From Escherichia coli (GTDB taxonomy: Bacteria; Pseudomonadota; Gammaproteobacteria; Enterobacterales; Enterobacteriaceae), in assembly GCF_013122565.1 (NCBI RefSeq), contig NZ_CP053258.1: DNA of 64,000 bases; one strand, given 5' to 3'. A program made the position numbers and the translations under genes. The notes beneath the pieces were generated by a model, which saw nothing but the letters and a program-made list of their open reading frames with translations, did not search any database and was not told the origin of the DNA. Within the stretch, counting starts at the first letter, position 1; each line of letters opens with the position of its first letter. This document shows, piece by piece, positions 616 to 49,411 of the stretch.

Positions 616-744
616 CAAGTGGATGCTACAGGTTGTAACAAGTTACTGTCCAGACATAGCTCACAAATAGGAATTCATCAAGATCTGGACATCTGATGAG
701 CAATCCCTACAATCGCCGCGTACTTTAATTTTTCAGGATACATC

Positions 745-5612: not shown

Positions 5613-5729
5613 GAAACGGAGCGGCACCTCTTTTAACCCTTGAAGTCACTGCCCGTTTCGAGAGTTTCTCAACTCGAATAACTAAAGCCAACGTGAACTT
5701 TTGCGGATCTCCAGGATCCGCTTTTTTTT
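5613..5729 (+). ncRNA. oxyS: OxyS small regulatory RNA with intrinsic terminator
   Basis: Sequence gaaacggagcggcacctcttttaacccttgaagtcactgcccgtttcgagagtttctcaactcgaataactaaagccaacgtgaacttttgcggatctccaggatccgc followed by a T-run, agreeing with K-12 oxyS as I recall it; divergent from oxyR. Confidence 0.9.
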
Positions 5730-5770: not shown

Positions 5771-7054
5771 TTACTCAATGCGATCTTTGACAATAAAGAA
5801 GTAACACAACGCCCCGGTGAACGTCACACAGGCCGCGATAACCAACGCCAGATTAAACGAGTGTGTGGTATCCACTACCCAACCGGTTACGATCGGAGCA
5901 AAGGAAGCAAAAACAAAACTGCCAAAGTTTTGAATCCCGGCGATGGAAGCCACTTTTGTTTCTGACACCATCACCTGCACCAGTCCCCATGCAGACGTTC
6001 CCGCGAAATGCACGCAGAATAGCGCCATTGAGATAAACGCTACCGCCTGAGCTGGCGAGGAAGATTGCACGACCAGCAACGTGCCTAATGCCGACATCAT
6101 CAAACCGCAGACAATAGCCGTTTTACGCGTCTTCGCCAGGTCGTAGCCTTTTTTCGCCAGTCGATCGACAACAATACCGTTTACCCACATCCCGACTGCC
6201 GCCGCGAGGAAAGGAATCGCCGCCACCCAACCGGTTTTCGCCAGACTGAAACCTTGCTCGGCCTGCAAATAACCGGGTAACCACGCGATGTAGAGCCAAC
6301 CGGTATAATTGACGCCAGAGAAACCTAAAATCATCCCCCAGGTTGTCCGATGCTTAAACAGCGCCAGCCACTCGCTAAATTGCAGCTGTGGACGCGGTTT
6401 AACCGGCGCGGAGAGATACGTCCGTTCTTCGTCAGTCAGGACAAACTGCGCCCGGTTGCGATACCACGCGTACCAACAGATCCCAACCAGAATCCCCGCC
6501 ACGCCGATGATGACGAACATCGTCCGCCAGCCCCATGCCAGCTGCATCAATACAAGAGCAGGAGGCGCGATAGCCTGACCGATAACGGTAGATGAGTTAA
6601 AAATCCCCAGCGCCGTGCCGCGTTCTTTTTGTGCATACCAGTCGGTGATCGACTTTACTCCCGCAGGCATAAATGGCGCTTCGCCAATACCCAGACCGAT
6701 ACGCATTAAAATAAAGTGGCTAAAAGAATTAACCATTCCTGTTAATGCCTGCATTAATGACCAGAATATTAAGCCTGCGCCTAAAACTATTCGTGGGCCA
6801 AAGCGGTCTAGCAAAATACCGGAAGGAAGTTGTGAAAAACCATAAGACAGAGAAAATGCAGAAAGCAAAAAACCAAACTCTGTCGCTGATAATCCTAACT
6901 CGCCACGAATCGCTTCGCCTGCCACGCTCAATGACGAACGGTCGAGAAAATTAACGATCCCCGCCATAAATAATAAAACCAGGGTCACTGTCTGAATACG
7001 ACGAATCCGTTGCGGTTTATTACCCGCAACACTGGTTGACACATCAACGTCCAT
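5771..7054 (-). CDS. MFS transporter, anion:cation symporter (ACS) family, sugar-acid type (DgoT/ExuT-like); accessory
   Basis: 427-aa hydrophobic ORF with multiple predicted TM segments and an N-terminal signature (LLFMAGIVNFLDRSSLSVAGEAIRGELGLSATEFGFLLSAFSLSYGFSQLPSGILLDRFGPR) typical of ACS-family sugar-acid transporters. Not part of the K-12 oxyR-argH interval as I recall it. Confidence 0.8.
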   Translation of the reverse strand: MDVDVSTSVAGNKPQRIRRIQTVTLVLLFMAGIVNFLDRSSLSVAGEAIRGELGLSATEFGFLLSAFSLSYGFSQLPSGILLDRFGPRIVLGAGLIFWSLMQALTGMVNSFSHFILMRIGLGIGEAPFMPAGVKSITDWYAQKERGTALGIFNSSTVIGQAIAPPALVLMQLAWGWRTMFVIIGVAGILVGICWYAWYRNRAQFVLTDEERTYLSAPVKPRPQLQFSEWLALFKHRTTWGMILGFSGVNYTGWLYIAWLPGYLQAEQGFSLAKTGWVAAIPFLAAAVGMWVNGIVVDRLAKKGYDLAKTRKTAIVCGLMMSALGTLLVVQSSSPAQAVAFISMALFCVHFAGTSAWGLVQVMVSETKVASIAGIQNFGSFVFASFAPIVTGWVVDTTHSFNLALVIAACVTFTGALCYFFIVKDRIE

Positions 7055-7120
7055 TTTTAGCTCCTTGAGCGGAATTAATCGATTTGATGACTATTCAGAA
7101 AATAATTAAGCGAACCGTTA

Positions 7121-8335
7121 TTACCAGTTCCACAATGTGCCATCTTCCAGTCGTGCGACGGGGAGATACGCCGGGTCATACGGATATTTCGCCGCCAGTT
7201 TCTCATCGAAAGAAATACCCAGCCCCGGTTCATCGCCTGGGTGCATATAACCTTCATCGAAGCGCCAGCTGTGCGGGAAGACTTCAAGCATTTGTTCGGA
7301 ATAGCCCATGTACTCCTGAACGCCAAAGTTTGGCACCCAGAGGTCAAAATGCAGCGCCGCCGCATGACAAACAGGCGATAAATCTGAAGGGCCATGCGAA
7401 CCGGTACGTACCTGATAAAGCGATGCAAAATCGGCAATCCGTCGCATCCCGGTAATGCCGCCTGCATGGGTAATCGTCGTGCGAATATAGTCAATCAGCT
7501 GCTCTTCGATTAACTGCTTGCAGTCCCAGATACTGTTAAACACTTCACCGACCGCAATCGGCGTCACGGTGTGCTGGCGAATCAGACGGAAACATTCCTG
7601 GTTCTCGGCAGGCGTAGGATCTTCCATCCAGAACAGGCGGTAATCCTCAATGCTCTTCCCAAAGCGCGCCGCTTCGATGGGGGTCAGGCGATGGTGCATG
7701 TCATGCAACAGATGTTCGTTAAAACCGAACTTATTACGCACCGCTTCAAATAACTTCGGCGTAAAATCGAGATACTTTTCTGAAGACCACAACTGCTCTT
7801 CTGGCCACAGGCCTTTGGTTGCCGGTTCATACGCCAGTCCTTTGCCCTTCGCCAGGCCATAAGTGGTTTGCATACCCGGTACACCACACTGCACACGAAT
7901 CGCCTTAAAGCCCATGTGCTGGTGCTTTGCATAGTCTTCAAGGACTTCATCAATCGTACGCCCGGTGGTGTGGCAATAAACCATCACGCCTTCACGAGAA
8001 GCACCACCAAGCAGTTGATACAATGGCATATTTGCCGCTTTAGCTTTGATATCCCACAACGCCATATCAATGGCAGAAATGGCTGACATCGTGACGGGGC
8101 CACGTCGCCAGTAAGCACCTTTATAAAAGAATTGCCAGATATCTTCGATACGGCTGGCATCGCGGCCAATTAGTTGTGGACAAAGATGATCTTTCAGATA
8201 AGAAGCGACCGACAATTCGCGACCATTTAACGTGGCATCTCCTAATCCACAAAGTCCGCTTTCAGTGGTTATTTTAAGCGTAACGAAATTACGCCCTGGG
8301 CAAGTAACAAAAACATCCGCAGCAATAATTTTCAT
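7121..8335 (-). CDS. Enolase-superfamily sugar-acid dehydratase, D-mannonate dehydratase (ManD)/RspA-like; accessory
   Basis: The ORF-track entry is 424 aa; the likely start is [43 protein letters not shown], preceded by an AGGAG Shine-Dalgarno, and this N-terminus closely resembles E. coli RspA and ManD-family enzymes. Confidence 0.8.
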
Positions 8336-8739
8336 TATTGCAATCTCCTGTGTTGTAAATAGACGTTTCAAACTTAATTTTACGCCTACTACCATACAAG
8401 AGAGAAAAAGCGATTATTCAACCGTGATCACATTAAAAACAAAAATTTCCATCGAGGAGAAAAAATACCCTCAAAAACCACCTGAATAATTAACCATTAT
8501 CGTTAAAACAACACGTTAAATAATCACATAACAAACTCCATTAATCATTAAAAATGGGCACAGCAATAGAAAATAATTATATTCAATTAATTAAAACATG
8601 CATTGGTTGATGTATTGAAAATATGATTTTTATGGGGGGGAGTGAAGGTAAAGAAGACACAATAATAAAAAGGAATATGACAAATAATGGTTCTGGTTGG
8701 ACGTTAAATTTAAGGTCACCAGAATGATGACAAATTTCT

Positions 8740-13712: not shown

Positions 13713-16364
13713 ATGAACGAACAATATTCCGCATTGCGTAGTAATGTCAGTATGCTCGGCAAAGTGCTGGGAGAAACCATCAAGGATGCGTTGGGAGAAC
13801 ACATTCTTGAACGCGTAGAAACTATCCGTAAGTTGTCCAAATCTTCACGCGCTGGCAATGATGCTAACCGCCAGGAGTTGCTCACCACCTTACAAAATTT
13901 GTCGAACGACGAGCTGCTGCCCGTTGCGCGTGCGTTTAGTCAGTTCCTGAACCTGGCCAACACCGCCGAGCAATACCACAGCATTTCGCCGAAAGGCGAA
14001 GCTGCCAGCAACCCGGAAGTGATCGCCCGCACCCTGCGTAAACTGAAAAACCAGCCGGAACTGAGCGAAGACACCATCAAAAAAGCAGTGGAATCGCTGT
14101 CGCTGGAACTGGTCCTCACGGCTCACCCAACCGAAATTACCCGTCGTACACTGATCCACAAAATGGTGGAAGTGAACGCCTGCTTAAAACAGCTCGATAA
14201 CAAAGATATCGCTGACTACGAACACAACCAGCTGATGCGTCGCCTGCGCCAGTTGATCGCCCAGTCATGGCATACCGATGAAATCCGTAAGCTGCGTCCA
14301 AGCCCGGTAGATGAAGCCAAATGGGGCTTTGCCGTAGTAGAAAACAGCCTGTGGCAAGGCGTACCGAATTACCTGCGCGAACTGAACGAACAACTGGAAG
14401 AGAACCTCGGCTACAAACTGCCCGTCGAATTTGTTCCGGTGCGTTTTACCTCGTGGATGGGCGGTGACCGCGACGGCAACCCAAACGTCACTGCCGATAT
14501 CACCCGCCACGTCCTGCTACTCAGCCGCTGGAAAGCCACCGATCTGTTCCTGAAAGATATTCAGGTTCTGGTTTCTGAACTGTCGATGGTTGAAGCGACC
14601 CCTGAACTGCTGGCGCTGGTTGGCGAAGAAGGTGCCGCAGAACCGTATCGCTATCTGATGAAAAACCTGCGTTCTCGCCTGATGGCGACACAGGCATGGC
14701 TGGAAGCGCGCCTGAAAGGCGAAGAACTGCCAAAACCAGAAGGCCTGCTGACACAAAACGAAGAACTGTGGGAACCGCTCTACGCTTGCTACCAGTCACT
14801 TCAGGCGTGTGGCATGGGTATTATCGCCAATGGCGATCTGCTCGACACCCTGCGCCGCGTGAAATGTTTCGGCGTACCGCTGGTCCGTATTGATATCCGT
14901 CAGGAGAGCACACGTCATACCGAAGCGCTGGGCGAGCTGACCCGCTACCTCGGTATCGGCGACTACGAAAGCTGGTCAGAGGCCGACAAACAGGCGTTCC
15001 TGATCCGCGAACTGAACTCCAAACGTCCGCTTCTGCCGCGCAACTGGCAACCAAGCGCCGAAACGCGCGAAGTGCTCGATACCTGCCAGGTGATTGCCGA
15101 AGCGCCGCAAGGCTCCATTGCCGCCTACGTGATCTCGATGGCGAAAACGCCGTCCGACGTGCTGGCTGTCCACCTGCTGCTGAAAGAAGCGGGTATCGGG
15201 TTTGCAATGCCGGTTGCTCCGCTGTTTGAAACCCTCGATGACCTGAACAACGCCAACGATGTCATGACCCAGCTGCTCAATATCGACTGGTATCGCGGCC
15301 TGATTCAGGGCAAACAGATGGTGATGATTGGCTATTCCGACTCAGCAAAAGATGCGGGCGTGATGGCAGCGTCCTGGGCGCAATATCAGGCACAGGATGC
15401 ATTAATCAAAACCTGCGAAAAAGCGGGTATTGAGCTGACGTTGTTCCACGGTCGCGGCGGTTCCATTGGTCGTGGCGGCGCACCTGCTCATGCGGCGCTG
15501 CTGTCACAACCGCCAGGAAGCCTGAAAGGTGGCCTGCGCGTGACTGAACAGGGCGAGATGATCCGCTTTAAATATGGTCTGCCAGAAATCACCGTCAGCA
15601 GCCTGTCGCTGTACACCGGGGCGATTCTGGAAGCCAACCTGCTGCCACCACCTGAGCCGAAAGAGAGCTGGCGTCGCATTATGGATGAACTGTCAGTCAT
15701 CTCCTGCGATCTCTACCGTGGCTACGTACGTGAAAACAAAGATTTTGTGCCTTACTTCCGCTCCGCTACGCCGGAACAAGAACTGGGCAAACTGCCGTTG
15801 GGTTCACGTCCGGCGAAACGTCGCCCAACCGGCGGCGTCGAGTCACTACGCGCCATTCCGTGGATCTTCGCCTGGACGCAAAACCGCCTGATGCTCCCCG
15901 CCTGGCTGGGTGCAGGAACAGCGCTGCAAAAAGTGGTCGAAGACGGCAAACAGAGCGAGCTGGAGGCTATGTGCCGCGATTGGCCATTCTTCTCGACGCG
16001 TCTCGGCATGCTGGAGATGGTCTTCGCCAAAGCAGATCTGTGGCTAGCGGAATACTATGACCAACGCCTGGTAGACAAAGCACTGTGGCCGTTAGGTAAA
16101 GAGTTACGCAATCTGCAAGAAGAAGACATCAAAGTGGTGCTGGCGATTGCCAACGATTCCCATCTGATGGCCGATCTGCCGTGGATTGCAGAGTCTATTC
16201 AGCTACGGAATATTTACACCGACCCGCTGAACGTATTGCAGGCCGAGTTGCTGCACCGCTCCCGCCAGGCAGAAAAAGAAGGCCAGGAACCGGATCCTCG
16301 CGTCGAACAAGCGTTAATGGTCACTATTGCCGGGATTGCGGCAGGTATGCGTAATACCGGCTAA
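13713..16364 (+). CDS. ppc: Phosphoenolpyruvate carboxylase
   Basis: 883-aa [44 protein letters not shown]... ending ...MRNTG. Confidence 0.97.
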
Positions 16365-16381
16365 TCTTCCTCTTCTGCAAA

Positions 16382-16410
16382 CCCTCGTGCTTTTGCGCGA
16401 GGGTTTTCTG
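16382..16410 (+). terminator. Probable intrinsic terminator of ppc
   Basis: Hairpin ccctcg-tgcttttgcg-cgaggg followed by ttttctg just after the ppc stop. Confidence 0.6.
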
Positions 16411-16546
16411 AAATACTTCTGTTCTAACACCCTCGTTTTCAATATATTTCTGTCTGCATTTTATTCAAATTCTGAATATACCTTCAGATATCCTTAAGGA
16501 ATTGTCGTTACATTCGGCGATATTTTTTTCAAGACAGGTTCTTACT

Positions 16547-18280
16547 ATGCATTCCACAGAAGTCCAGGCTAAACCCCTTTTTAGCTGGAAAGCCCTGGGT
16601 TGGGCACTGCTCTACTTTTGGTTTTTCTCTACTCTGCTACAGGCCATTATTTACATCAGTGGTTATAGTGGCACTAACGGCATTCGCGACTCGCTGTTAT
16701 TCAGTTCGCTGTGGTTGATCCCGGTATTTCTCTTTCCGAAGCGGATTAAAATCATTGCCGCAGTGATCGGCGTGGTGCTATGGGCGGCCTCTCTGGCGGC
16801 GCTGTGCTACTACGTCATCTACGGTCAGGAGTTCTCGCAGAGCGTTCTGTTTGTGATGTTTGAAACCAACACCAACGAAGCCAGCGAGTATTTAAGCCAG
16901 TATTTCAGCCTGAAAATTGTGCTTATCGCGCTGGCCTATACGGCGGTGGCTGTTCTGCTGTGGACACGCCTGCGCCCGGTCTATATTCCAAAGCCGTGGC
17001 GTTATGTTGTCTCTTTTGCCCTGCTTTATGGCTTGATTCTGCATCCGATCGCCATGAATACGTTTATCAAAAACAAGCCGTTTGAGAAAACGTTGGATAA
17101 CCTGGCCTCGCGTATGGAGCCTGCCGCACCGTGGCAATTCCTGACCGGCTATTATCAGTATCGTCAGCAACTAAACTCGCTAACAAAGCTACTGAATGAA
17201 AATAATGCCTTGCCGCCGCTGGCTAATTTCAAAGATGAATCGGGTAACGAACCGCGCACCTTAGTGCTGGTGATTGGCGAGTCAACCCAGCGTGGACGCA
17301 TGAGTCTGTACGGTTATCCGCGTGAAACCACGCCGGAGCTGGATGCGCTGCATAAAACCGATCCGAATCTAACCGTGTTTAATAACGTAGTTACGTCTCG
17401 TCCGTACACCATTGAAATCCTGCAACAGGCGCTGACCTTTGCCAATGAAAAGAACCCGGATCTGTATCTGACGCAGCCGTCGCTGATGAACATGATGAAA
17501 CAGGCGGGTTATAAAACCTTCTGGATCACCAACCAGCAGACGATGACCGCCCGCAATACCATGCTGACGGTATTTTCGCGCCAGACCGACAAGCAGTACT
17601 ACATGAACCAGCAACGTACGCAGAGTGCTCGTGAATACGACACTAACGTGCTGAAGCCGTTCCAGGAAGTGCTGAAGGACCCTGCGCCGAAGAAACTGAT
17701 CATTGTTCATCTGCTGGGTACGCATATCAAATACAAATACCGCTACCCGGAAAATCAGGGCAAGTTTGATGGCAATACCGATCATGTTCCGCCGGGATTA
17801 AACGCGGAAGAGCTGGAGTCATATAACGATTATGACAACGCTAACCTGTATAACGATCATGTGGTTGCCAGCCTGATTAAAGACTTTAAAGCAGCAGACC
17901 CGAACGGTTTCCTGGTTTACTTCTCTGACCACGGTGAAGAGGTTTACGACACGCCGCCTCATAAAACCCAGGGGCGTAATGAGGACAACCCGACGCGTCA
18001 TATGTACACCATTCCGTTCCTGCTGTGGACGTCGGAAAAATGGCAAGCGACTCATCCGCGTGATTTCTCGCAGGATGTTGATCGTAAATACAGCCTGGCG
18101 GAACTGATCCACACCTGGTCAGATTTGGCGGGCTTATCTTACGACGGTTACGATCCAACCCGTTCAGTGGTGAATCCGCAGTTCAAAGAAACTACCCGCT
18201 GGATTGGTAACCCGTATAAGAAAAACGCACTGATCGATTACGACACGCTGCCGTATGGCGATCAGGTGGGTAATCAGTAA
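16547..18280 (+). CDS. eptC: Phosphoethanolamine transferase EptC
   Basis: Canonical 577-aa protein starting MHSTEVQAKPLFSWKALGWALLYFW; N-terminal TM segments followed by a sulfatase-like domain. Confidence 0.93.
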   Translation: MHSTEVQAKPLFSWKALGWALLYFWFFSTLLQAIIYISGYSGTNGIRDSLLFSSLWLIPVFLFPKRIKIIAAVIGVVLWAASLAALCYYVIYGQEFSQSVLFVMFETNTNEASEYLSQYFSLKIVLIALAYTAVAVLLWTRLRPVYIPKPWRYVVSFALLYGLILHPIAMNTFIKNKPFEKTLDNLASRMEPAAPWQFLTGYYQYRQQLNSLTKLLNENNALPPLANFKDESGNEPRTLVLVIGESTQRGRMSLYGYPRETTPELDALHKTDPNLTVFNNVVTSRPYTIEILQQALTFANEKNPDLYLTQPSLMNMMKQAGYKTFWITNQQTMTARNTMLTVFSRQTDKQYYMNQQRTQSAREYDTNVLKPFQEVLKDPAPKKLIIVHLLGTHIKYKYRYPENQGKFDGNTDHVPPGLNAEELESYNDYDNANLYNDHVVASLIKDFKAADPNGFLVYFSDHGEEVYDTPPHKTQGRNEDNPTRHMYTIPFLLWTSEKWQATHPRDFSQDVDRKYSLAELIHTWSDLAGLSYDGYDPTRSVVNPQFKETTRWIGNPYKKNALIDYDTLPYGDQVGNQ

Positions 18281-18428
18281 ATGACCTATGTATCGCGTCT
18301 GGCGCTATTTGCCGGATGCGATACTGGCACAATGTTTACATCTCACTTCCATCAGGCCACACTTTTCAGGTGGCCTTTTTTCATAATGCCAGTTACTGTT
18401 TTCCCGTCTACATACCTAAGGGAATAAC

Positions 18429-19280
18429 ATGTATCACGACGTCAGCTATCTGCTCTCCCGCCTGATCAACGGCCCGCTGTCCCTGCGCCAGATTTACTTT
18501 GCAAGCAGTAACGGCCCGGTGCCCGATCTTGCGTATCAGGTCGATTTTCCACGACTGGAAATTGTGCTGGAAGGTGAGTTTGTTGATACCGGCGCTGGAG
18601 CAACGTTAGTTCCCGGCGATGTGCTGTACGTTCCCGCTGGTGGCTGGAATTTTCCACAATGGAAAACACCCGCGACCACCTTTAGCGTGCTGTTTGGCAA
18701 ACAGCAACTCGGCTTCAGCGTCGTGCAATGGGATGGCAAACAATATCAAAATCTGGCGAAGCAACACGTCGCCCGACGCGGCCCACGCATAGGTTCTTTT
18801 CTGCTACAAACGCTCAATGAAATGCAAATGCAGTCGCAGGAGCAGCAAACGGCAAGGCTTATCGTCGCCAGCCTGCTTAGCCACTGCCGCGATTTGCTTG
18901 GCAGCCAAATCCAGACCGCCTCACGCAGCCAGGCACTGTTCGAAGCTATTCGTGATTATATCGACGAACGCTACGCCTCCGCGCTTACCCGCGAATCTGT
19001 CGCACAGGCATTCTATATTTCACCAAACTATCTCTCGCACCTGTTTCAAAAAACGGGGGCCATTGGTTTTAACGAATACCTGAATCACACGCGACTGGAG
19101 CACGCCAAGACGTTATTGAAAGGCTATGACCTGAAGGTAAAAGAAGTGGCGCACGCCTGCGGCTTTGTCGACAGCAACTACTTCTGCCGTCTGTTTCGTA
19201 AAAACACCGAACGCTCGCCGTCGGAATATCGCCGGCAGTACCACAGCCAACTGACAGAAAAACCGACTACTCCAGAATAA
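18429..19280 (+). CDS. yijO: AraC-family transcriptional regulator YijO
   Basis: 283-aa ORF with a C-terminal AraC HTH (YISPNYLSHLFQKTGAIGFNEYLNHTRLEHAKTLL). Confidence 0.9.
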   Translation: MYHDVSYLLSRLINGPLSLRQIYFASSNGPVPDLAYQVDFPRLEIVLEGEFVDTGAGATLVPGDVLYVPAGGWNFPQWKTPATTFSVLFGKQQLGFSVVQWDGKQYQNLAKQHVARRGPRIGSFLLQTLNEMQMQSQEQQTARLIVASLLSHCRDLLGSQIQTASRSQALFEAIRDYIDERYASALTRESVAQAFYISPNYLSHLFQKTGAIGFNEYLNHTRLEHAKTLLKGYDLKVKEVAHACGFVDSNYFCRLFRKNTERSPSEYRRQYHSQLTEKPTTPE

Positions 19281-19608
19281 GATGGGTTTGCTGCGGCGCA
19301 GAAAGCACTTTGCGCACCGCGCTCATTACCCGCTGCGGCTCACGCAGGAATGCGTAGATGCTGCATTGCACATAGCGGCAATGTTCAAATCGCTCGGCAC
19401 CGGCAAGCTCGATATCCGTAATTAACAGCGCAACATCCGCCCGGCGGATATCCTCGTCCGCTAAACGATTCTCCGTTCCCAGCGCGCCCTGAGTTTCAAT
19501 GCTGATGACCCACTTCTCTAACTGGCACAACTTTTCCAGCCGTTCCGCCGCCATATAAGTATGCGCCACGCCGCTTACGCAGGCGGTTACTGCCACCAGG
19601 TATGCCAT
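19267..19608 (-). CDS. frwD: Fructose-like PTS EIIB component FrwD
   Basis: Canonical 113-aa protein MAYLVAVTACVSGVAHTYMAAERLEKLCQ...; paralogous to frwB at 22802..23122. Confidence 0.9.
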   Translation of the reverse strand: MAYLVAVTACVSGVAHTYMAAERLEKLCQLEKWVISIETQGALGTENRLADEDIRRADVALLITDIELAGAERFEHCRYVQCSIYAFLREPQRVMSAVRKVLSAPQQTHLILE

Positions 19609-19609
19609 T

Positions 19610-20488
19610 TTAACCTCCCACGGTAACCTGAAATCCGGCCCGTTCTGCCATTTCGCGCATCGTTGCCACATCAGCTGACGACGGCGCAGGCACCTCTTTC
19701 ATCGACCATGTTTTCCCCAGCAGGCGGTATTTCGGTTCGCCGTACTGATGAAACGGTAACAGATGGATCTGCCTGATATTCAGCGGGATCAGCACGTCCA
19801 GCGCCTGCTGCATATTCTCCCGGCTGAGCGTGAAACCAGGGATCAGCGGTAAACGCGGGATCACGTTGACACCCTCACTCACCAGCAAACGCAGATTCTC
19901 CACCACGCGTGGCAGGTTCATCTTCACCACATCCCGCGCCTGAGTCGCATCCATGATTTTTAAATCGAACAACACTTCATCGCACAATTTCGCCAGTGGT
20001 AACAGCTTGCTTGCTGGCGCGTCTCCGGCAGTTTCAATGGCGCATGACACCCCCCACAGCCGCAGTCGCTGTAAAAAACGGGTAGCAAACTCCGCCTGCA
20101 TTAACACTTCGCCGCCAGAAAGCGTGACGCCGCCGCCGGACGTGCGAAAGAAAATGTCATCTTTCATCACTTCCCGTTCCAGCGCGTCAAGGCTGATATC
20201 GCGACCAATCCGTTCAAACGCCCCGGAGGGGCATTCATCCGCATCACGCAAACATTTCGCACAGTGCAGACATTTCGCCTCTCTGCGTACCGTCTGGATT
20301 TTGCCGGAGATCGACTCCGGATTAGCACACCACGGGCAAAGATGCGGACAGCCTTTAAAAAAGACCACCGTACGAATGCCCTCACCGTCATTCAGTGAAT
20401 AACGCTGAATGTTGAAAATGCGCGCCACATCATTGCGGCGCGTTTCCACAACGTTACAGCTGATGCGCTGTCCGGCGGATGATGTCAT
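19610..20488 (-). CDS. pflC: Glycyl-radical enzyme activating protein (pyruvate formate-lyase 2 activase) PflC
   Basis: Radical-SAM CxxxCxxC motif (FFKGCPHLCPWCANPE); canonical 292-aa protein starting MTSSAGQRISCNVVETRR. Confidence 0.9.
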   Translation of the reverse strand: MTSSAGQRISCNVVETRRNDVARIFNIQRYSLNDGEGIRTVVFFKGCPHLCPWCANPESISGKIQTVRREAKCLHCAKCLRDADECPSGAFERIGRDISLDALEREVMKDDIFFRTSGGGVTLSGGEVLMQAEFATRFLQRLRLWGVSCAIETAGDAPASKLLPLAKLCDEVLFDLKIMDATQARDVVKMNLPRVVENLRLLVSEGVNVIPRLPLIPGFTLSRENMQQALDVLIPLNIRQIHLLPFHQYGEPKYRLLGKTWSMKEVPAPSSADVATMREMAERAGFQVTVGG

Positions 20489-22751
20489 CCTGGATCTCCT
20501 TCGACAGTTCGACAAAGAAGGCGCTGTATCCGGCAACGCGCACCACCAGCCCGGCATAATCTTGTGGGCGCTGTTGCGCTTCCCGCAACGTGTCGGCGTT
20601 CACCACGTTAAACTGAATATGTTGTAACTTAAGCTGGGTAAACGCCCGTAAGAAGTCGGCCAGTTTGCGTAATCCCGCTTCACCTTCCAGGGTCGCCGGA
20701 GTGAATTTCACGTTCAGCAACGTACCGTTAGACAGCAGTGTGTTATCGAGCTTACTGACTGACTTCAGTACCGCCGTTGGCCCTTGTGCGTCCTGGCCCA
20801 GCATGGGTGACAAGCCGCCGTCTGCCAGTTGTTCCCCGGCAAAACGACCGTCTGGCGTCGCACCAACCACCGATCCCAACGGGACGTGAGCAGAAACGGT
20901 ATACGATCCCGGCGTGAAGTAGCCGCCGCGCGGGTTCTGGTATTTTTCCACTTCTTTGCAGTAGTGGCGTAACAGTTCGGCGCTGATGTTATCCACCTCG
21001 TCGATATCGTTACCGTATTTCTCAAAGCGGTTAATTAAGCGAGCGCGGACTTTTTCGCCTTCTGGCGTTGCGAAGTTGGCTTTTAATACCGACAGCAATT
21101 CGTCAAAACTTAAACGCTGTTGATCAAAAACCATCCCTTTCAACGCATGGAGAGAATCGCTCAGGTTGGCGATACCGATCCCCTGTACGCCGGAGAAGTT
21201 ATAACGCGCGCCGCCATCGGTAATATCGCGGCCTTTTTCCAGACAATCGCTGATAAACGATGAGAGCAGCGGTACAGGTGCCCAGTCGCGATGGCCGATA
21301 TCACAAATATTGCTGCCCTCAACCATCAGGGTGATGTAGTGGCTGATCTTGGCGCGGATCTGCTCCAGTAAACCTTCATAAGTCAGCGCAGCATTGCCTT
21401 CATTTTCATGCAGGCAGATTTCCATCACTTTCAGCAGATTAAACATCGCGATGTCATGCAAGCCGTAGGTTCTGCCGGGAATAGATAATTCCACACAGCC
21501 CACTACGGAATAGTCGCGCGCATCTTCCAGCGAAACGCCACGGTTGAGGAACGCTGGCACCACCACTTCATCGTTAAAGATTTGCGGAATACCGGTGCCG
21601 AGGCGAATGGTTTCGGCGGTTTTCATCAGGAACGGCGTGTCGATCAAGGCGTTAGTGCGCACGCCGAGGTTCGGTTGCGGTAATTGCACGCTTTGATAAG
21701 CATCGAGGCAAAGGAATGAAAGCACGTTCACCGCGCTACGTCCGTTCTCGGTTAACCCGCCGAGCAGTGCGGTATAGCCGGTCGGGAAACCTGCGAAATA
21801 ACGCGCGCTGCTGGTGGAGCGCAACAGCACGATGTCGTTGCATTTCACCCATAAAGATTCGAGCAGTTCTTTCAGGAACGCCGGATCTTCGCCCTGGGTT
21901 AAAGATGCCTGATAGAACGGCAACATATACTGGTCGAAGCGCCCTAAAGACAGCGAACTGGCGTTGGATTCGTATTGCAGAATGATGTTCATGTACCAGA
22001 ATAACTGGCACGCCTGCCAGAACGTCTGCGGCTTATGTTGCGCGTTATGGCGGGAGATCTCCGCAATAGTCAGCAGCTCTTAGCGACGCTGGGCATCTGT
22101 GCAGTTTGCCGCCATCGTTTCCGCCAGTTCGGCGTAACGCAAAATGTGTTTCTGCGAGGCTTCCAGCAGTAACAGCGCTGCCTGATAAAAGTAATTCTCC
22201 GGCTGTTGCTGACAATGTTGCTGCATCTGCGCCACCAGCTCCCCCAGCCCGTGATTCAGCAGGCGCGGGTAATCAATAATAATGTGCCCCTGGCCTTTAT
22301 CCGTCTGGTTGATGCTGAAAATCTGCGTGCTGGTCGCGGCTTTTACTTCATCCGTCATCTGCCCGTTGATGAAATCTTTCATCGAACGTTTTTCCCAGTA
22401 CGGGAACAACTCTTCGCGGTAGATACGTTTATCTTCTTCGCTGATAGCAAAGCGGTCCTGCGGACGCGTCGGGAACTGGTCCAACTCTTTCAGCAGCCAG
22501 TAAGGATCCATTTCCGGCGACATAATCCCGGCGCGTGGTTTCACCGTGCGGTTACCGGCAATCAGTTCTTCATCACGAATCGAAATTTCAACATGTTCAA
22601 GGATATACGCTGTTGCTTTCGCCCGGCGCAATATCACCGGTTCGCCTTCGGTTTGCCGATGGCTGGCGGTATAAAGCAGCGCACGCTCCAGCGAGATTTC
22701 ACGGGTATTGGCAAACAGTGCAGTTTTGAGGCGAGAGATACGATTCGTCAT
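20454..22751 (-). pseudogene. pflD: pflD (glycyl-radical enzyme, formate acetyltransferase 2) interrupted by a single in-frame TAA stop
   Basis: ORFs 22080..22751 (223 aa, N-terminal) and 20454..21992 (512 aa, C-terminal) are in the same frame. Reading on past the TAA at 22080..22082 gives continuous protein-like sequence (ELLTIAEISRHNAQHKPQTFWQACQLFWYMNIILQ...). Total span of 766 codons matches the 765-aa full-length enzyme. Confidence 0.8.
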
Positions 22752-22801
22752 GAGGAACTCCTGTGGGAAAGCGAACCCGCCCTTGCGAGCGGGAGAAGAA
22801 C

Positions 22802-23122
22802 TTAAGCGGTTTGCGCCAGGTGAGCTTCAATTTTGCTCATAATGGCGTCAGCGCGTTTTACCGCGTCGCTGATGTTGACGCGCACAATGGTCTTGCCAGC
22901 AAAACGCTCTTCAAACTTGATGCCGATATCTTTGGTCAGAATCACCATATCGGCGCTCGCCACATCTTCCGCAGTCAGTTCGTTTTCCAGACCAATCGAG
23001 CCCTGGGTTTCTACTTTCACTTCCCAGCCTTTCGCTTTCGCGGCACTTTCCAGCGCCTCTGCCGCCATATAAGTATGGGCAACACCAGATGGACATGCGG
23101 TTACTGCAATAATTTTCGTCAT
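22802..23122 (-). CDS. frwB: Fructose-like PTS EIIB component FrwB
   Basis: 106-aa ORF MTKIIAVTACPSGVAHTYMAAEALESAAKAKGWEVKVETQG... Confidence 0.92.
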   Translation of the reverse strand: MTKIIAVTACPSGVAHTYMAAEALESAAKAKGWEVKVETQGSIGLENELTAEDVASADMVILTKDIGIKFEERFAGKTIVRVNISDAVKRADAIMSKIEAHLAQTA

Positions 23123-23136
23123 GGCTCGTTCCTCAA

Positions 23137-24216
23137 TTAATTAATTTCAAAATCCAAATCCAGGTCGTCTTCTTTTTCATCAGTAGAAGATCCATTTTTA
23201 CGCGCCAGACTTTTCAGCACGTTCACGCAGACTGCCGTCACAACCGCCCCGACAGCCACTGCTGCGATATAACCCAACTTACCTTCAACCACCGGCAGCA
23301 CAATCAGACCACCCCAGCCGGCATAGCACTGCGCACCGACCAGCGCCGCAGTTACTGCACCACAAACTGAACCGACCATGATGGAAGGAATAACACGCAG
23401 CGGATCGGCAGCGGCGAAAGGAATCGCCCCTTCAGTAACGCCAACGCACCCCATCACCAGCGCCGCTTTACCAGTTTCGCGCTCTTCTGCGGAGAAATTT
23501 TTACGACCAATCAGCGTCGCCAGCCCCATCCCCAGCGGCGGGATACAAATACCCACGGCAGCAATGGCCACCACGGTATAAACACCCTGAGCAACGCAAA
23601 TCAGCATGAAGGCATAGGCCACTTTGTTAACCGGACCGCCCATATCGAACGCCAGCATCAGACCCATGATCACCGCCAGCATAACAATGCTGCCCTGCTG
23701 CATCCCCTGAAGCCACTGAGTCAGGCTGTTGGTCAACGCCCCTACAGGCTCGCCCAAGCCCCACATCATGATGCCTGCGGTAATCAGTGTGCCGACGATA
23801 GGAATGATGAAGATAGGCATCACCGAGCGCAGAACTTTATGCACCGGAATTTTCTTCAGGTAATGCACCACGATGCCGCCGATAATCCCGGCGATCAGTG
23901 CACCAAAGAAGCCCGCACCAAAGCTGTTACCAACCCAGGCACCGATAGCGCACGGAGCCAGCGCAGAACGCTCTGCAATGGAGTAACCAATGTAAGCGGC
24001 GAGGAAAGGCACCATCAGCGTCAAACCCGCAACGCCGATATCAAACAGTTTTTTCAAATTCGGATCGGCTACGGCATTCGGCACTGCGCCTTTGCCATAC
24101 AACATGACGGAAACCGCCAGCAAAATACCGCCCGATACCACGAAGGGAATCATGTGTGAAACGCCCGTCATTAAGTGCTGACGGGTATTTTTCAGGATCT
24201 GCACCAACTCATTCAT
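23137..24216 (-). CDS. frwC: Fructose-like PTS EIIC permease FrwC
   Basis: Canonical 359-aa polytopic membrane protein starting MNELVQILKNTRQHLMTGVSHMIPFVVSGG; the ORF-track entry has a 7-aa extension. Confidence 0.92.
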   Translation of the reverse strand: MNELVQILKNTRQHLMTGVSHMIPFVVSGGILLAVSVMLYGKGAVPNAVADPNLKKLFDIGVAGLTLMVPFLAAYIGYSIAERSALAPCAIGAWVGNSFGAGFFGALIAGIIGGIVVHYLKKIPVHKVLRSVMPIFIIPIVGTLITAGIMMWGLGEPVGALTNSLTQWLQGMQQGSIVMLAVIMGLMLAFDMGGPVNKVAYAFMLICVAQGVYTVVAIAAVGICIPPLGMGLATLIGRKNFSAEERETGKAALVMGCVGVTEGAIPFAAADPLRVIPSIMVGSVCGAVTAALVGAQCYAGWGGLIVLPVVEGKLGYIAAVAVGAVVTAVCVNVLKSLARKNGSSTDEKEDDLDLDFEIN

Positions 24217-24524
24217 AAGCTGCTCCCGGGCTTGCAAAAGCCCATGTCCATATTTTTGATGGAGGAAACAATAGGCAATCGCAGGCGGAGCAAACAGTGG
24301 ATAAAAAGGCCATTTACTGGACTTTTGTAATATCAGTACAAAAATGCGATCCGCCTCATAACTTGCGATAAACCTGAAGCATGCCGCAAAACGGCGTCTT
24401 GTGAGACGCGTCGCAAATTGACGGTTACATTACATTTGTCCAGCTTTTGGCAGATTTGTCACATGGCAGGCCGTTGCCGTGCGCTCTTATCCTGTAAACA
24501 GAAAACCGTACCGGGAGAGAGGCA

Positions 24525-27026
24525 ATGGCCCTGATTGTGGAATTTATTTGTGAGCTACCTAACGGCGTACATGCGCGTCCGGCAAGCCACGTTGAAACGC
24601 TGTGTAATACTTTTTCATCTCAAATTGAGTGGCATAACCTGCGTACTGACCGTAAAGGCAACGCCAAAAGCGCCCTGGCGCTGATTGGCACCGATACACT
24701 GGTGGGCGATAACTGCCAGTTACTAATTTCCGGGGCCGACGAACAGGAAGCGCACCAGCGTTTAAGCCAATGGCTGCGCGATGAATTTCCCCACTGCGAC
24801 GCACCGCTGGCGGAAGTAAAATCTGACGAACTGGAACCACTGCCGGTTTCACTGACCAATCTGAATCCGCAAATTATCCGCGCCCGCACCGTGTGCAGCG
24901 GTAGCGCTGGCGGCATTCTGACGCCGATCTCTTCTTTAGATCTCAATGCGCTGGGTAATCTTCCTGCTGCCAAAGGCGTTGACGCCGAGCAATCCGCGCT
25001 GGAAAACGGTCTGACACTGGTGATGAAAAACATTGAGTTTCGTCTGCTCGATAGCGACGGTGCCACCAGCGCGATTCTGGAGGCTCACCGATCCCTGGCT
25101 GGCGATACTTCCCTGCGCGAACATTTACTGGCAGGCGTCAGCGCCGGATTAAGCTGCGCCGAAGCGATTGTCGCCAGCGCGAATCACTTTTGCGAAGAGT
25201 TTTCCCGTTCCAGCAGCAGCTACCTGCAAGAACGTGCCCTGGACGTACGCGACGTCTGCTTCCAGTTACTCCAGCAAATCTACGGTGAGCAACGCTTCCC
25301 GGCACCGGGCAAACTGACGCAGCCCGCCATTTGTATGGCTGATGAACTGACCCCCAGCCAGTTCCTCGAACTGGATAAAAATCACCTCAAAGGTCTGTTG
25401 CTGAAAAGTGGCGGCACCACATCGCATACGGTGATTCTTGCCCGTTCGTTCAACATTCCAACGCTGGTTGGTGTGGATATTGATGCCCTTACTCCGTGGC
25501 AGCATCAGACGATTTATATCGACGGCAACGCTGGGGCGATTGTGGTTGAGCCAGGGGAAGCCGTAGCCCGTTATTATCAGCAAGAAGCCCGCGTACAGGA
25601 CGCCCTGCGTGAGCAACAGCGTGTCTGGCTGACCCAACAAGCCCGTACCGCTGACGGTATCCGCATTGAAATTGCCGCTAACATCGCTCACTCCGTGGAA
25701 GCGCAGGCCGCATTCGGCAATGGTGCGGAAGGCGTTGGTTTGTTCCGCACTGAAATGCTCTATATGGATCGCACCAGTGCACCGGGCGAAAGCGAGCTGT
25801 ACAACATTTTTTGTCAGGCGCTGGAGTCTGCCAACGGACGCAGCATTATTGTGCGCACTATGGACATTGGCGGCGACAAACCCGTTGATTATCTAAACAT
25901 TCCCGCAGAGGCAAACCCGTTCCTCGGTTATCGCGCCGTGCGTATTTATGAAGAATACGCCTCGCTGTTCACCACACAACTACGGTCGATCCTGCGCGCC
26001 TCCGCTCACGGCAGCCTGAAAATCATGATCCCGATGATCTCTTCAATGGAAGAGATCTTATGGGTGAAAGAAAAACTGGCGGAAGCCAAACAGCAACTGC
26101 GTAACGAACACATTCCGTTTGATGAGAAGATCCAGCTCGGCATTATGCTGGAAGTGCCGTCGGTGATGTTCATCATCGATCAATGCTGCGAAGAGATTGA
26201 TTTCTTTAGTATTGGTAGTAATGACCTGACGCAATATCTGCTGGCGGTGGATCGCGATAACGCTAAGGTTACTCGTCACTATAACAGCCTGAATCCGGCA
26301 TTCCTGCGGGCGCTCGATTACGCCGTGCAGGCGGTGCATCGCCAGGGCAAATGGATTGGTCTGTGCGGTGAACTGGGAGCGAAAGGTTCCGTGCTGCCAT
26401 TGCTGGTCGGTTTAGGGCTGGATGAGCTGAGCATGAGCGCACCATCAATTCCGGCGGCGAAAGCGCGGATGGCGCAACTTGATAGCCGTGAGTGCCGCCA
26501 GTTGCTCAACCAGGCAATGGCCTGCCGTACTTCGCTGGAAGTGGAACACCTGCTGGCGCAATTCCGCATGACCCAACAGGACGCACCACTGGTCACCGCC
26601 GAGTGCATCACGCTGGAAAGCGACTGGCGCAGCAAAGAAGAAGTGCTCAAAGGCATGACCGATAACCTGCTGCTGGCAGGGCGCTGCCGCTATCCGCGTA
26701 AACTGGAAGCCGACTTGTGGGCGCGCGAGGCCGTTTTCTCTACCGGTCTGGGCTTTAGTTTTGCCATTCCACACAGCAAATCAGAACACATTGAGCAATC
26801 CACCATCAGTGTAACGCGTCTGCAAGCGCCGGTGCGCTGGGGCGATGATGAAGCACAATTCATCATTATATTAACCCTGAACAAACACGCTGCGGGCGAT
26901 CAGCATATGCGCATTTTCTCGCGCCTCGCTCGCCGCATCATGCACGAAGAATTCCGTAACGCGCTGGTTAACGCCGCCTCTGCCGACGCTATCGCCAGCC
27001 TGCTGCAACATGAACTGGAACTGTAA
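24525..27026 (+). CDS. ptsA: Multiphosphoryl transfer protein PtsA/FrwA (HPr-like, Enzyme I-like and EIIA-like domains)
   Basis: 833-aa ORF with HPr-like N-terminus ([14 protein letters not shown]), an Enzyme I core and an EIIA(Fru)-like C-terminus. Confidence 0.92.
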
Positions 27027-27037
27027 AAGGAAACATC

Positions 27038-27700
27038 ATGGAACTGTATCTGGACACCGCTAACGTCGCAGAAGTCGAACGTCTGGCACGCATATTCCCG
27101 ATTGCCGGGGTGACAACTAACCCGAGCATTATCGCTGCCAGCAAGGAGTCCATCTGGGAAGTGCTGCCGCGTCTGCAAAAAGCTATTGGTGATGAGGGCA
27201 TTCTGTTTGCTCAGACCATGAGCCGCGACGCGCAGGGGATGGTGGAAGAAGCGAAGCGCCTGCGCGACGCCATTCCGGGCATTGTGGTGAAAATCCCGGT
27301 GACTTCCGAAGGTCTGGCAGCAATTAAAATACTGAAAAAAGAGGGTATTACTACACTTGGCACCGCTGTATATAGCGCCGCACAAGGGTTATTAGCCGCA
27401 CTGGCAGGGGCAAAATACGTTGCTCCGTATGTTAACCGCGTAGATGCCCAGGGCGGAGACGGCATTCGTACGGTTCAGGAGCTGCAAGCGTTGTTAGAAA
27501 TGCATGCGCCAGAAAGCATGGTGCTGGCAGCCAGCTTTAAAACGCCGCGTCAGGCACTGGACTGTTTACTGGCAGGATGTGAATCCATCACCCTGCCCTT
27601 AGATGTAGCGCAACAAATGCTCAACACCCCTGCGGTAGAGTCAGCTATAGAGAAGTTCGAACACGACTGGAATGCCGCATTTGGCACTACTCATCTCTAA
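27038..27700 (+). CDS. fsaB: Fructose-6-phosphate aldolase 2
   Basis: 220-aa [44 protein letters not shown]..., transaldolase-like. Confidence 0.93.
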
Positions 27701-27710
27701 AGGAGCAATT

Positions 27711-28814
27711 ATGGACCGCATTATTCAATCACCGGGTAAATACATCCAGGGCGCTGATGTGATTAATCGTCTGGGCGAATACCTGAAGCCGCTGGCAGAA
27801 CGCTGGTTAGTGGTGGGTGACAAATTTGTTTTAGGTTTTGCTCAATCCACTGTCGAGAAAAGCTTTAAAGATGCTGGACTGGTAGTAGAAATTGCGCCGT
27901 TTGGCGGTGAATGTTCGCAAAATGAGATCGACCGTCTGCGTGGCATCGCGGAGACTGCGCAGTGTGGCGCAATTCTCGGTATCGGTGGCGGAAAAACCCT
28001 CGATACTGCCAAAGCACTGGCACATTTCATGGGTGTTCCGGTAGCGATCGCACCGACTATCGCCTCTACCGATGCACCGTGCAGCGCATTGTCTGTTATC
28101 TACACCGATGATGGTGAGTTTGACCGCTATCTACTGTTGCCAAATAACCCGAATATGGTCATTGTCGACACCAAAATCGTCGCTGGCGCTCCTGCACGTC
28201 TGTTAGCGGCGGGTATCGGCGATGCGCTGGCAACCTGGTTTGAAGCACGCGCCTGTTCCCGTAGCGGCGCTACCACTATGGCGGGCGGCAAGTGCACCCA
28301 GGCGGCGCTGGCACTGGCAGAACTGTGCTACAACACTCTGCTGGAAGAAGGCGAAAAAGCGATGCTTGCCGCCGAACAGCATGTAGTAACCCCTGCGCTG
28401 GAACGCGTGATTGAAGCGAACACCTATTTAAGCGGTGTTGGTTTTGAAAGCGGCGGACTGGCGGCGGCTCACGCGGTGCATAACGGCCTGACCGCTATCC
28501 CGGACGCGCATCACTATTATCACGGTGAAAAAGTGGCATTCGGTACGCTGACGCAGCTGGTACTGGAAAACGCGCCGGTTGAGGAAATCGAAACCGTAGC
28601 TGCACTTAGCCATGCGGTAGGTTTGCCAATAACTCTCGCTCAACTGGATATTAAAGAAGATGTCCCGGCGAAAATGCGAATTGTGGCAGAAGCGGCATGT
28701 GCAGAAGGTGAAACCATCCACAACATGCCTGGCGGCGCGACGCCAGATCAGGTTTACGCCGCTCTGCTGGTAGCCGACCAGTACGGTCAGCGTTTCCTGC
28801 AAGAGTGGGAATAA
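27711..28814 (+). CDS. gldA: Glycerol dehydrogenase
   Basis: Canonical 367-aa protein starting [39 protein letters not shown]; the ORF-track entry has a 13-aa extension. Confidence 0.93.
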
Positions 28815-37213: not shown

Positions 37214-37336
37214 TTATTTCTGCCAGTCTCCGTCTTTAGCCGGCGGTCATCGCCACAACTGCACTGATGGATATGGTATTCTTTCGAGTATCTTTGCGGG
37301 CACTAACGCCAGGAGTATCGCCATGAGAATGGCGCG

Positions 37337-38818
37337 ATGAACACAGGGAATTTCGAGTCGATACAAATCATACTCGACGCGCAAGAGTGGCGTAGCCTGC
37401 CGCTGCATCTGCGTCTGTATCACGCTTTTCGCCAATTGGTGATTTCCGGCGCGTTGTCTGATGGCGCAAAGCTGCCGTCCGCTCGCGCACTGGCCCAGCA
37501 ACTTGGTCTTTCCAGAGATACCGTCGAAAATGCCTATTCCCAGCTTCAGCGCGACGGTTTTATGACCCGCAGGCAGGGAGCCGGGAGTTTCGCCAGCCGC
37601 CAGGGGATCCCGCAAATTCAGGGGCAGCACGCTCAGCCCCCCTCGCCCGGACAAGCACCGGCATTAACCGCCCGCTGGCAGCCGATTGCCGATCGCGCCG
37701 TCTCTTTCGATGCCCGCCAGATGCAGACCTTTACGCTTGGCCTGCCGGAAACGCGAAACTTCCCGCTAAACATTTGGCAGAACTTTTCCCGCCAGATCCA
37801 ACGTGAGCAGGCGCATACGCTGATGTTAAATAGCGATCCGCAGGGCGAGCCGGAGCTGCGCCAGCAAATTGCGCATTACCTTAATTTTGAACGCGGCGCG
37901 AAGGTAGATGCAGAGCAGATTGTGATTGTCAGCGGCGCACGGCAGGCGTTCTGGCTGTGCGGGCAACTGCTGGCAGAGGCCGGGCAATCAGTGGCGATGG
38001 AAAATCCAGGCTATCCCGGCGCGCGTCAGGCGTTTTCTGCCGCACAGCTTAATCTTCTTCCCGTTGAAGTGGATGACGCCGGGATCCGGGTGGATAAACT
38101 GCCGCCCGCACCGCTGGTTTACGTCACGCCGTCGCACCAGTTTCCTTCTGGTCATTTGCTCACGCTGGCGCGCCGTCACGCCCTGATTGCCTGGGCACAG
38201 GCGCACAATGCGTGGATTATTGAAGACGACTACGACAGCGAATTTCACTACACCAGCGCGCCCGTCGCCTGTCTGCAAGGGTTAGACTGCGAGCAACGCA
38301 CCCTGTATGTCGGCACTTTCAGCAAAACGCTCTATCCTGGTTTGCGCATTGGTTATCTGGTGGTGCCTGCCTCGCTGGCTGCGCACTTTGCCGCCGCACG
38401 TAATTTGCTTGATGGCGCAACGCCTGCGTTATCCCAACTGACGCTGGCGCGATTTATCGAGTCCGGTCATTTTGCCGCCCATATTCGCACCATGCGCAAT
38501 ATGTACGCGGTGCGACAGGCGAGCCTTGCAGAGGCTATTCATCAGCACTTAAGTGAATGGGTCACGCCAGTGGTGACATCCGGTGGATTACAAATGCCCT
38601 GCTGGCTGCATGAAGATGTTGATGAGCAACAGACGCTGAACGCGGCGCGCCGCGCCGGGTTAAATATCGCCGGGATGCGCCAGTTCTGGCTGACGCACCC
38701 CGCGCCCGCGGGCTGGCTGCTGGGATTCGCCGCCTTTACCCCCTACGAAATTGAGCAGGGAGTCAAGCGTCTGCGGGCTGCATTATGCGCTGAAAACGTG
38801 CGCCCAGCCGGGTCATAA
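37337..38818 (+). CDS. MocR/GabR-family transcriptional regulator (GntR HTH fused to a PLP aminotransferase-like domain); accessory
   Basis: 493 aa. The N-terminal winged HTH (LYHAFRQLVISGALSDGAKLPSARALAQQLGLSRDTVENAYSQLQRDGF) is followed by a long aminotransferase class I/II-like domain. Confidence 0.8.
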   Translation: MNTGNFESIQIILDAQEWRSLPLHLRLYHAFRQLVISGALSDGAKLPSARALAQQLGLSRDTVENAYSQLQRDGFMTRRQGAGSFASRQGIPQIQGQHAQPPSPGQAPALTARWQPIADRAVSFDARQMQTFTLGLPETRNFPLNIWQNFSRQIQREQAHTLMLNSDPQGEPELRQQIAHYLNFERGAKVDAEQIVIVSGARQAFWLCGQLLAEAGQSVAMENPGYPGARQAFSAAQLNLLPVEVDDAGIRVDKLPPAPLVYVTPSHQFPSGHLLTLARRHALIAWAQAHNAWIIEDDYDSEFHYTSAPVACLQGLDCEQRTLYVGTFSKTLYPGLRIGYLVVPASLAAHFAAARNLLDGATPALSQLTLARFIESGHFAAHIRTMRNMYAVRQASLAEAIHQHLSEWVTPVVTSGGLQMPCWLHEDVDEQQTLNAARRAGLNIAGMRQFWLTHPAPAGWLLGFAAFTPYEIEQGVKRLRAALCAENVRPAGS

Positions 38819-39869
38819 TCTCATACGGGATGGTGTCGCAGGCAGCCGCAACCTCTTCCAGCGTCTGGCCTGTGCCAATAAACTCCACCTTATCGCCCGC
38901 CGTCGGCGTGACGGCGCTGGCATCGACCATAAAGCTGTCCATACACACCCGCCCCAACACCGGTAACCGCACCCCGCGCCAGCATACGCCCGCCGGAGGA
39001 CGCATATTTCGCGGAACGCCATCCGCGTAACCCGCGGATATCGTGGCGATACGCAGCGGACGCGTGGCGGTAACCGTGCTGCCGTAGCCAACTGGCGTTC
39101 CGGCCGGAACATCCTGCACGCGCAGTATGGTCAGCGTCAGCGTAAAGACCGGTTTTAACGGCCTGGAAAACCACGGCTGGGTGACGCCAAACAGCGCAAT
39201 CCCCGGACGGCAGAGATCTTCCCGCCAGCCCGAGTGCAAAAACATCCCGCAGGAGTTCGCCAGCGAAAATCGGCTGCTGGGGAAAACCGTTTTTGCCTGC
39301 TGAAGTCGCGCGTGTTGCGCCATATTTAACGCATGATCCGGCCTGTCGGCGTTCGCCAGATGGCTGATGATATAATCCGGCGCAGGCCAGTTACGCTCAC
39401 GAAAAATCGCCGCCAGACGCATCAGTTGTTGCGACATCACGCCCAGCCGCGACATCCCGGAATCGAGCTGAATCATCACCGCACGCCGCTGCTGGCGCGT
39501 TTCCAGTAACGTAAGCCACGCCATCACCTGGTCTACGGAATTGAGCAATGGCGTGATCTGCTGCGCGTAACAAAATGCCATCGCCTCCGGCATAACCCCA
39601 TTAAGCACCACCACCCGCGCATCAGCGGGCAAGCATTTACGCAGCGCCACACCTTCAGAAAGCTGCGCGACAAAAAAGATCCGGCAGTTCGCCGCATACA
39701 GGGCGGGAGCAATCGCCTCCGCCCCCAGACCATAGGCATTCGCCTTCAACACCGCGCCACATTGCGCACGGGCAGCATGGCGGGCCAGGGTGCGATAATT
39801 TTCGACAATGGCGGCGAGATTGACGCACATAACGCCGCACGCCGCCTGAATTTCAGCAAGAGTTATCAT
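38763..39869 (-). CDS. Alanine racemase-family PLP enzyme (fold type III); accessory
   Basis: 368 aa. Contains the PLP-lysine motif [11 protein letters not shown] near the N-terminus and an Alr-like C-terminal beta domain. Overlaps the MocR 3' end by about 56 bp (convergent) and the downstream SHMT-like gene by 4 bp. Confidence 0.8.

Positions 39870-49159: not shown

Positions 49160-49411
<252 letters not shown>

Follow-up and report, generated by a model that had tools for sequence, protein, structure and literature searches.

A single in-frame TAA codon interrupts pflD within an otherwise intact operon of an Escherichia coli strain

The pflD reading frame and its operon

The window—the whole stretch of 64,000 nucleotides analysed here, from Escherichia coli contig NZ_CP053258.1—contains the pflD locus in the gene order annotated for this species, with frwC, frwB, pflD, pflC and frwD on one strand, ptsA-fsaB-gldA diverging from them, and yijO, eptC and ppc beyond (Table 1). 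A preliminary description of this DNA had reported pflC and the frw genes as intact, and at the sequence level this was borne out: pflC, frwD, frwB, frwC and ptsA-fsaB-gldA all have the lengths of their O157:H7 references. The activase gene pflC, which shares 35 nt with the end of pflD and carries its own AAGGAG Shine-Dalgarno sequence, is free of stops and differs from its O157:H7 counterpart by eight synonymous and four missense changes. More broadly, 16 of 16 flanking genes between argB and katG aligned without gaps to the O157:H7 annotation and contained no internal stops, their differences being mostly synonymous.

Table 1 Coordinates of the pflD locus and of other features in the window
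Feature	Position	Strand	Basis or remark
pflD pseudogene: 765-codon frame of a PFL2-type glycyl-radical enzyme with one interruption	20454..22751	minus	Translation; NF007437 match; gap-free alignment to annotated pflD of O157:H7 TR01 and ATCC 8739
In-frame TAA, pflD codon 224; ancestral codon GAA (Glu), G>T transversion at 22082	22080..22082	minus	Sequence; orthologue comparison
pflD N-terminal fragment, 223 codons; sole product expected from normal translation	22083..22751 (ORF 22080..22751)	minus	ORF list; part of PF02901 only; lacks Cys419 and Gly741
pflD C-terminal 512-codon ORF from ATG254; has Cys419 (GCVE) and RVAGY (Gly741), no Shine-Dalgarno	20454..21992	minus	ORF list; motif positions; start context
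pflC, glycyl-radical activase, intact	19610..20488	minus	NF007483, 628.5 bits (cut-off 326)
frwD (PTS EIIB-like), intact, last in operon	19267..19608	minus	
frwB (PTS EIIB-like), intact, directly upstream of pflD	22802..23122	minus	
frwC (PTS EIIC), intact, first in operon	23137..24216	minus	
ptsA(frwA)-fsaB-gldA, divergent, all intact	24525..28814	plus	
Two genes annotated in matching genomes as MFS transporter and D-mannonate dehydratase ManD	5771..8395	minus	Between OxyS/oxyR and argH
Island between metF and metL	~37300..41100		
Island: MocR/PdxR-like regulator	37337..38818		
Island: alanine-racemase homologue	38763..39869	minus	
Island: accessory serine-hydroxymethyltransferase (SHMT) homologue	39866..41104	minus	In-frame TAG at 41047..41045, codon 20
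Cobalamin riboswitch (btuB leader)	442..631	minus	Rfam, above gathering score
OxyS	5613..5722	plus	Rfam, above gathering score
ES036 sRNA	48358..48399	minus	Rfam, above gathering score
L31 leader	49379..49431	minus	Rfam, above gathering score
ClpQY promoter element	54043..54100	plus	Rfam, above gathering score

Single-frame translation of 22751..20454 yielded 766 codons with exactly two stops, one at codon 224 and the other at the natural end of the gene (codon 766). Around the internal stop the minus strand reads GAT GCC CAG CGT CGC TAA GAG CTG CTG ACT, with the TAA at 22082..22080. The N- and C-terminal open reading frames on its two sides are in phase (22751-21992 = 759 = 253 x 3), and this two-ORF layout is not a chance pattern of open frames. 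We thus recovered what had been described before, namely one in-frame TAA in a 765-codon frame that is otherwise open and two ORFs that share a frame, and we reproduced exactly the earlier translation across the stop.

When Glu224 was restored in silico, the frame matched NF007437, the NCBIfam PflD equivalog, over residues 1-765 of 765 with 1724.9 bits (cut-off 1109), as well as TIGR01774, the PFL2/glycerol-dehydratase subfamily of glycyl-radical enzymes, with 1346.3 bits (cut-off 678.2). The active-site cysteine, Cys419, lies in a GCVE motif (residues 418-421) and the radical glycine, Gly741, in RVAGY (residues 738-742); both fall past the stop, and the C-terminal fragment carries PF01228. 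Hence the locus has the hallmarks of the PflD family in its sequence—a full-length profile match, the cysteine together with the glycyl-radical motif (RVxG), and an adjoining radical-SAM activase—and the uninterrupted frame that a functional PflD needs is broken by the TAA at codon 224. As judged from these features, the locus is a pseudogene of the PflD family rather than a functional member of it.

Divergence from O157:H7 is mosaic over 22802..28814. In frwB, ptsA, fsaB and gldA, 3-4% of the nucleotides are changed, nearly always synonymously, against ~1-2% in ppc, argB/C/E, yijO, pflC, frwC and katG; this pattern points to a recombination boundary close to pflD. On a larger scale, the source strain is unusually far from all complete RefSeq E. 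coli genomes (best identity 98.2-98.5% over 10-25-kb stretches), and the best matches change from segment to segment, among them O157:H7 and isolates from baboon, frog, bear and pig. Part of the window between positions 1 and 10500 is accessory, probably the two-gene MFS/ManD segment; this region was covered over at least 80% of its length in only 1,865 of 5,425 matching genomes. The five Rfam matches (Table 1) occupy their expected E. coli positions, none of them near pflD.

Origin, authenticity and age of the stop

To place the stop among other alleles, we compared pflD across strains, as the preliminary description had recommended. Codon 224 is GAA in O157:H7 TR01, GCA_052983875.1 and ATCC 8739, and equally in L002, L005 and L006 (GCA_014331115.1), three assemblies to which we return below. 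Since the intact alleles have GAA at this position, the lesion amounts to one G>T transversion without any indel, in keeping with the earlier reading of a point nonsense mutation as opposed to a frameshift or an insertion.

The surrounding sequence is that of a common allele. In a search with 198 nt around the stop, many complete genomes, among them ATCC 8739 and strain C, matched at all but two positions; relative to ATCC 8739 these two mismatches correspond to H187Y and E224*. Because the patch is otherwise near-identical in strains with an intact gene, the TAA arose on a pre-existing intact pflD haplotype. Two synonymous SNPs beside the stop, at codons 218 and 225, are private to the window. 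We also considered whether a cluster of missense differences (H187Y, S216N and E238Q) reflects decay after inactivation and rejected this, given that N216 and Q238 belong to the common haplotype of intact alleles (ATCC 8739). Of separate interest, this part of pflD (~22040..22350, nt ~400-712 of the gene) is a diversity hotspot in E. coli: the 198-nt patch matched 3,892 genomes at 95-99% identity and 1,504 at 90-95%.

Finished genomes do contain single-base errors and the TAA allele is known from one strain only, so the true codon might be GAA and pflD intact. We therefore looked for the allele in other data. The exact 223-residue pflD product was found in an assembly built directly from sequencing run SRR11451224 (Logan assembly), in which one contig corresponds to window positions 16080..28751 and is identical at 12,672 of 12,672 bases, TAA included. 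Among 5,426 complete E. coli genomes, by comparison, the best match reaches ~98.2% identity over the pflD neighbourhood and 98.8% over pflD. Because perfect identity over 12.7 kb stands against ~98.2% for the best complete genome, we take SRR11451224 to derive from the same strain or clone; a literature search returned no paper on this run. The stop is thus present in the SRR11451224 reads and is not the product of a single assembler. Independence of that library from the source genome is less certain: the run may be the very read set from which the source genome was built or polished, which would make the confirmation independent of the assembler and not of the library.

Two further points speak against an artefact. 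First, the change is a substitution outside homopolymers, not a typical long-read type of error. Second, the deposited record itself seems to lack a PflD protein. Between accessions QJU26033 (yijO) and QJU26038 (ptsA) there is room for four proteins only, which fits frwD, pflC, frwB and frwC (argH being QJU26027), and the source GenBank record lists no product for either pflD fragment. The accession gap and the missing products suggest that pflD was already annotated as a pseudogene by the depositors, and hence that the stop is in the deposited sequence. Taken with the T found inside 12.7 kb of perfect identity, these points make a sequencing or assembly error very unlikely, and with it the sense codon at 22080..22082 that had been named as the finding to overturn the initial interpretation.

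The allele appears to be confined to this strain. A 41-mer combining the canonical context with the TAA (designed such that a megablast seed needs the T) was found in 0 of 5,426 complete E. coli genomes, and so was a 41-mer of the window's own haplotype, the latter excluding the exact haplotype only, given the SNPs at codons 218 and 225. With the same restriction to the exact haplotype, a 37-mer of the window's own sequence was absent from species-representative genomes, and the exact window pflD haplotype was absent from the metagenome collection. These searches tested the absence of the TAA by exact words in two sequence contexts, such that a TAA on a third haplotype would escape them. At the protein level, repaired PflD (E224) had no exact match on record, and exact searches with YijO, PflC and FrwC led only to GCA_052983875.1, which shares YijO and PflC, shows 98.6% identity and carries pflD intact.

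Within the frame, we saw no trace of decay. By the Nei-Gojobori method, dN/dS between the window pflD and three intact alleles (O157:H7 TR01, GCA_052983875.1 and ATCC 8739) was 0.021-0.041, compared with 0.021-0.043 among intact alleles; for codons 225-765, the 541 codons now left untranslated, it was 0.009-0.029 against the intact alleles. Relaxed constraint 3' of the stop was therefore not seen, dN/dS being at the intact baseline, and a search of the pflD frame found no second internal stop or indel. Because dN/dS is at the level of intact genes, a second lesion is missing and the flanking genes are intact, the loss of pflD appears to be recent, as had been proposed from the sequence at the outset; the allele's count of 0 among 5,426 genomes supports the same view. 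Inactivation would accordingly make up a negligible share of the history of the lineage, an estimate based on dN/dS.

Lesions in other strains bear on whether the loss of PflD was positively selected, for example by sparing the cell a costly or toxic reaction in its niche. An independent nonsense mutation, Q221* (CAG to TAG), sits three codons upstream in the isolate assembly GCA_014331115.1 (L006, JACFDZ010000016.1), on an O157-like allele with only three differences from TR01 pflD, and in ~30 of the 5,426 complete genomes 20% or more of pflD is missing. Selection is nevertheless an unlikely explanation. The closeness of the two nonsense codons is an ascertainment effect, as our search for other lesions could return only breaks upstream of codon 254. 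Two further candidates, a 1-bp deletion in L002 and a 26-bp deletion in L005, are doubtful: the two alleles are otherwise identical to each other, and they come from run or metagenome assemblies at the same gap-prone region and may be artefacts. Moreover, more than 99% of the complete genomes keep at least 80% of pflD, which is under strong purifying selection (dN/dS ~0.02), and in a laboratory study under standard conditions (PMC12416847) a missense change in pflD was carried along as a neutral passenger, in line with a gene that cells can do without outside its niche.

Apparent pflD deletions of 130-290 bp in five metagenome scaffolds (L003, L004, L008, L009 and L010) were rejected, as they proved to be 100-N scaffolding gaps. 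All five gaps fall exactly in the diversity hotspot, where co-occurring strains presumably break the assembly.

The window holds a second private in-frame stop, in the SHMT homologue of the metF-metL island (Table 1). Its TAG derives from the CAG of relatives by a C>T transition, and the 412-codon frame is otherwise intact. A G>T mutator acting behind both nonsense codons was thus rejected, the two changes sharing no signature. Among 5,426 complete E. coli genomes, only three carry the island (~95% identity); its SHMT gene has a different internal stop in 2013C-4282 and WL297 and is intact in RMDEC465, so that it seems to be decaying independently in several strains.

Translation at the stop and predicted consequences

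We are highly confident in the following account: a genuine, strain-specific and very recent G>T change converted Glu224 (GAA) of pflD into an ochre stop, leaving a non-functional product of 223 out of 765 residues and a pseudogene in place of the gene. Translation would end after residue 223, and the resulting polypeptide would comprise part of the PFL-like domain without most of the barrel. Because Cys419 and Gly741 both lie past the stop, this product is expected to be a dead enzyme.

That conclusion would not hold if the stop were bypassed, either by natural readthrough or by an ochre-suppressor tRNA encoded elsewhere, often enough to yield useful amounts of full-length PflD. The remaining frame and the whole operon are intact, as bypass would have it, and a very young pseudogene predicts the intact frame equally well. 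Both release factors recognise TAA, which leaks less than any other stop codon in E. coli, and a G directly after it makes for a strong termination context. The pflD stop, a TAA followed by G, should accordingly be an efficient terminator. No tRNA gene occurs in the window, to which our search for suppressor tRNAs was confined, and the rest of the genome could harbour one. With no other genome among the 5,426 carrying the stop, there has been no opportunity for a recoding signal to evolve there, and its flanks are ordinary intact-allele sequence. Low-level readthrough, raised in the preliminary description as the alternative to recent loss, hence found no positive support, with an efficient TAA-G context and a stop private to one strain, and we regard bypass as highly improbable.

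A different way to rescue activity would be an enzyme in two pieces, in which the 223-residue N-terminal fragment associates with a 512-residue fragment re-initiated at ATG254 to form an active glycyl-radical enzyme. ATG254 is the only canonical in-frame restart codon in pflD, it lies 87 nt past the stop, and the 512-codon ORF that it opens contains both Cys419 and Gly741. However, the 18 nt 5' of ATG254 (TGCCAGTTATTCTGGTAC) hold no Shine-Dalgarno sequence, and residues 224-253 would be missing from both fragments. The allele, moreover, is private, and we saw no natural family split at this position, apparent splits being independent lesions or 100-N gaps. We consider a two-piece enzyme barely conceivable. 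By the same token, it is exceedingly improbable that the pathway as a whole remains alive, be it through ochre suppression (a suppressor tRNA or unusually high readthrough) or through a two-piece enzyme, and that the strain still uses 1,5-anhydromannitol anaerobically.

Returning to pflD as a recent pseudogene, its loss can be related to a known reaction of this oxygen-sensitive enzyme of sugar breakdown. As outlined in a passage of the review PMC12441222, which draws on Ma et al. (JACS 2024), a PTS phosphorylates 1,5-anhydromannitol and PflD cleaves the resulting 1,5-anhydromannitol-6-phosphate to 1-deoxyfructose-6-phosphate; the same passage has the paralogue YbiW do likewise for 1,5-anhydroglucitol-6-phosphate. 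From this review and general knowledge, ptsA, fsaB and gldA are presumed to be partners in the PflD pathway, and from gene context and general knowledge FsaB and GldA probably process the PflD product. Anaerobic use of 1,5-anhydromannitol has most likely been lost in this strain, with the genes for the PTS, the activase and the downstream enzymes still intact. We accordingly predict that the strain would be unable to ferment this sugar via the radical-mediated glycolysis pathway described in 2024.

The lesion may also reach beyond pflD. From the stop to pflC, some 1.6 kb of the mRNA would go untranslated, and through Rho-dependent polarity both pflC and frwD may then be expressed at a lower level. 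A C-rich, G-poor stretch (C/G ~1.8 in 78-nt windows) located 350-510 nt past the stop is compatible with Rho loading, such that polarity on these two genes is plausible.

With its PTS, activase, aldolase and dehydrogenase genes all intact, the strain would lend itself as a natural pflD-null for tests of the pathway. More generally, it illustrates the sporadic loss, through single-base events, of accessory pathways for anaerobic sugar use in E. coli. Beyond correct annotation, the loss of pflD probably matters little.

Comparison with known systems

The closest known system is the E. coli enzyme itself, PflD (YijL) with its activase PflC, encoded in the frwCB-pflDC-frwD operon. The window resembles it in gene order (as in O157:H7 and ATCC 8739), in the full-length equivalog match, in the cysteine and glycine motifs and in the neighbouring PflC. 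It differs in that the window copy is broken at codon 224 and is predicted to be unable to make the enzyme, and in carrying H187Y relative to the nearest haplotype.

With programmed recoding—selenocysteine insertion at UGA, or conserved leaky stops—the locus shares an in-frame stop within an intact, conserved frame. Unlike such cases, the pflD codon is TAA and not TGA or TAG, and its flanks match those of sense-codon alleles, arguing against a dedicated recoding element. Neither of the signs by which recoding is recognised was found: orthologues do not conserve the stop (both sequence contexts searched gave 0 of 5,426 complete E. coli genomes), and in place of a cis element or a leaky UGA or UAG there is TAA followed by G, with only one other base in 198 nt differing from ATCC 8739.

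The best likeness is to the strain-specific nonsense pseudogenes that are commonplace in E. coli and that PGAP annotates as 'internal stop'. Like them, the pflD allele arose by a one-base change from a sense codon, has intact neighbours, has undergone no secondary decay and is private to its strain. A literature search found no paper on pflD pseudogenes in E. coli. The allele is an ordinary young nonsense pseudogene in a well-known locus, and what is new is the allele itself only; it differs from its kind in nothing of substance, the one point of note being that the function of PflD was identified only in 2024.
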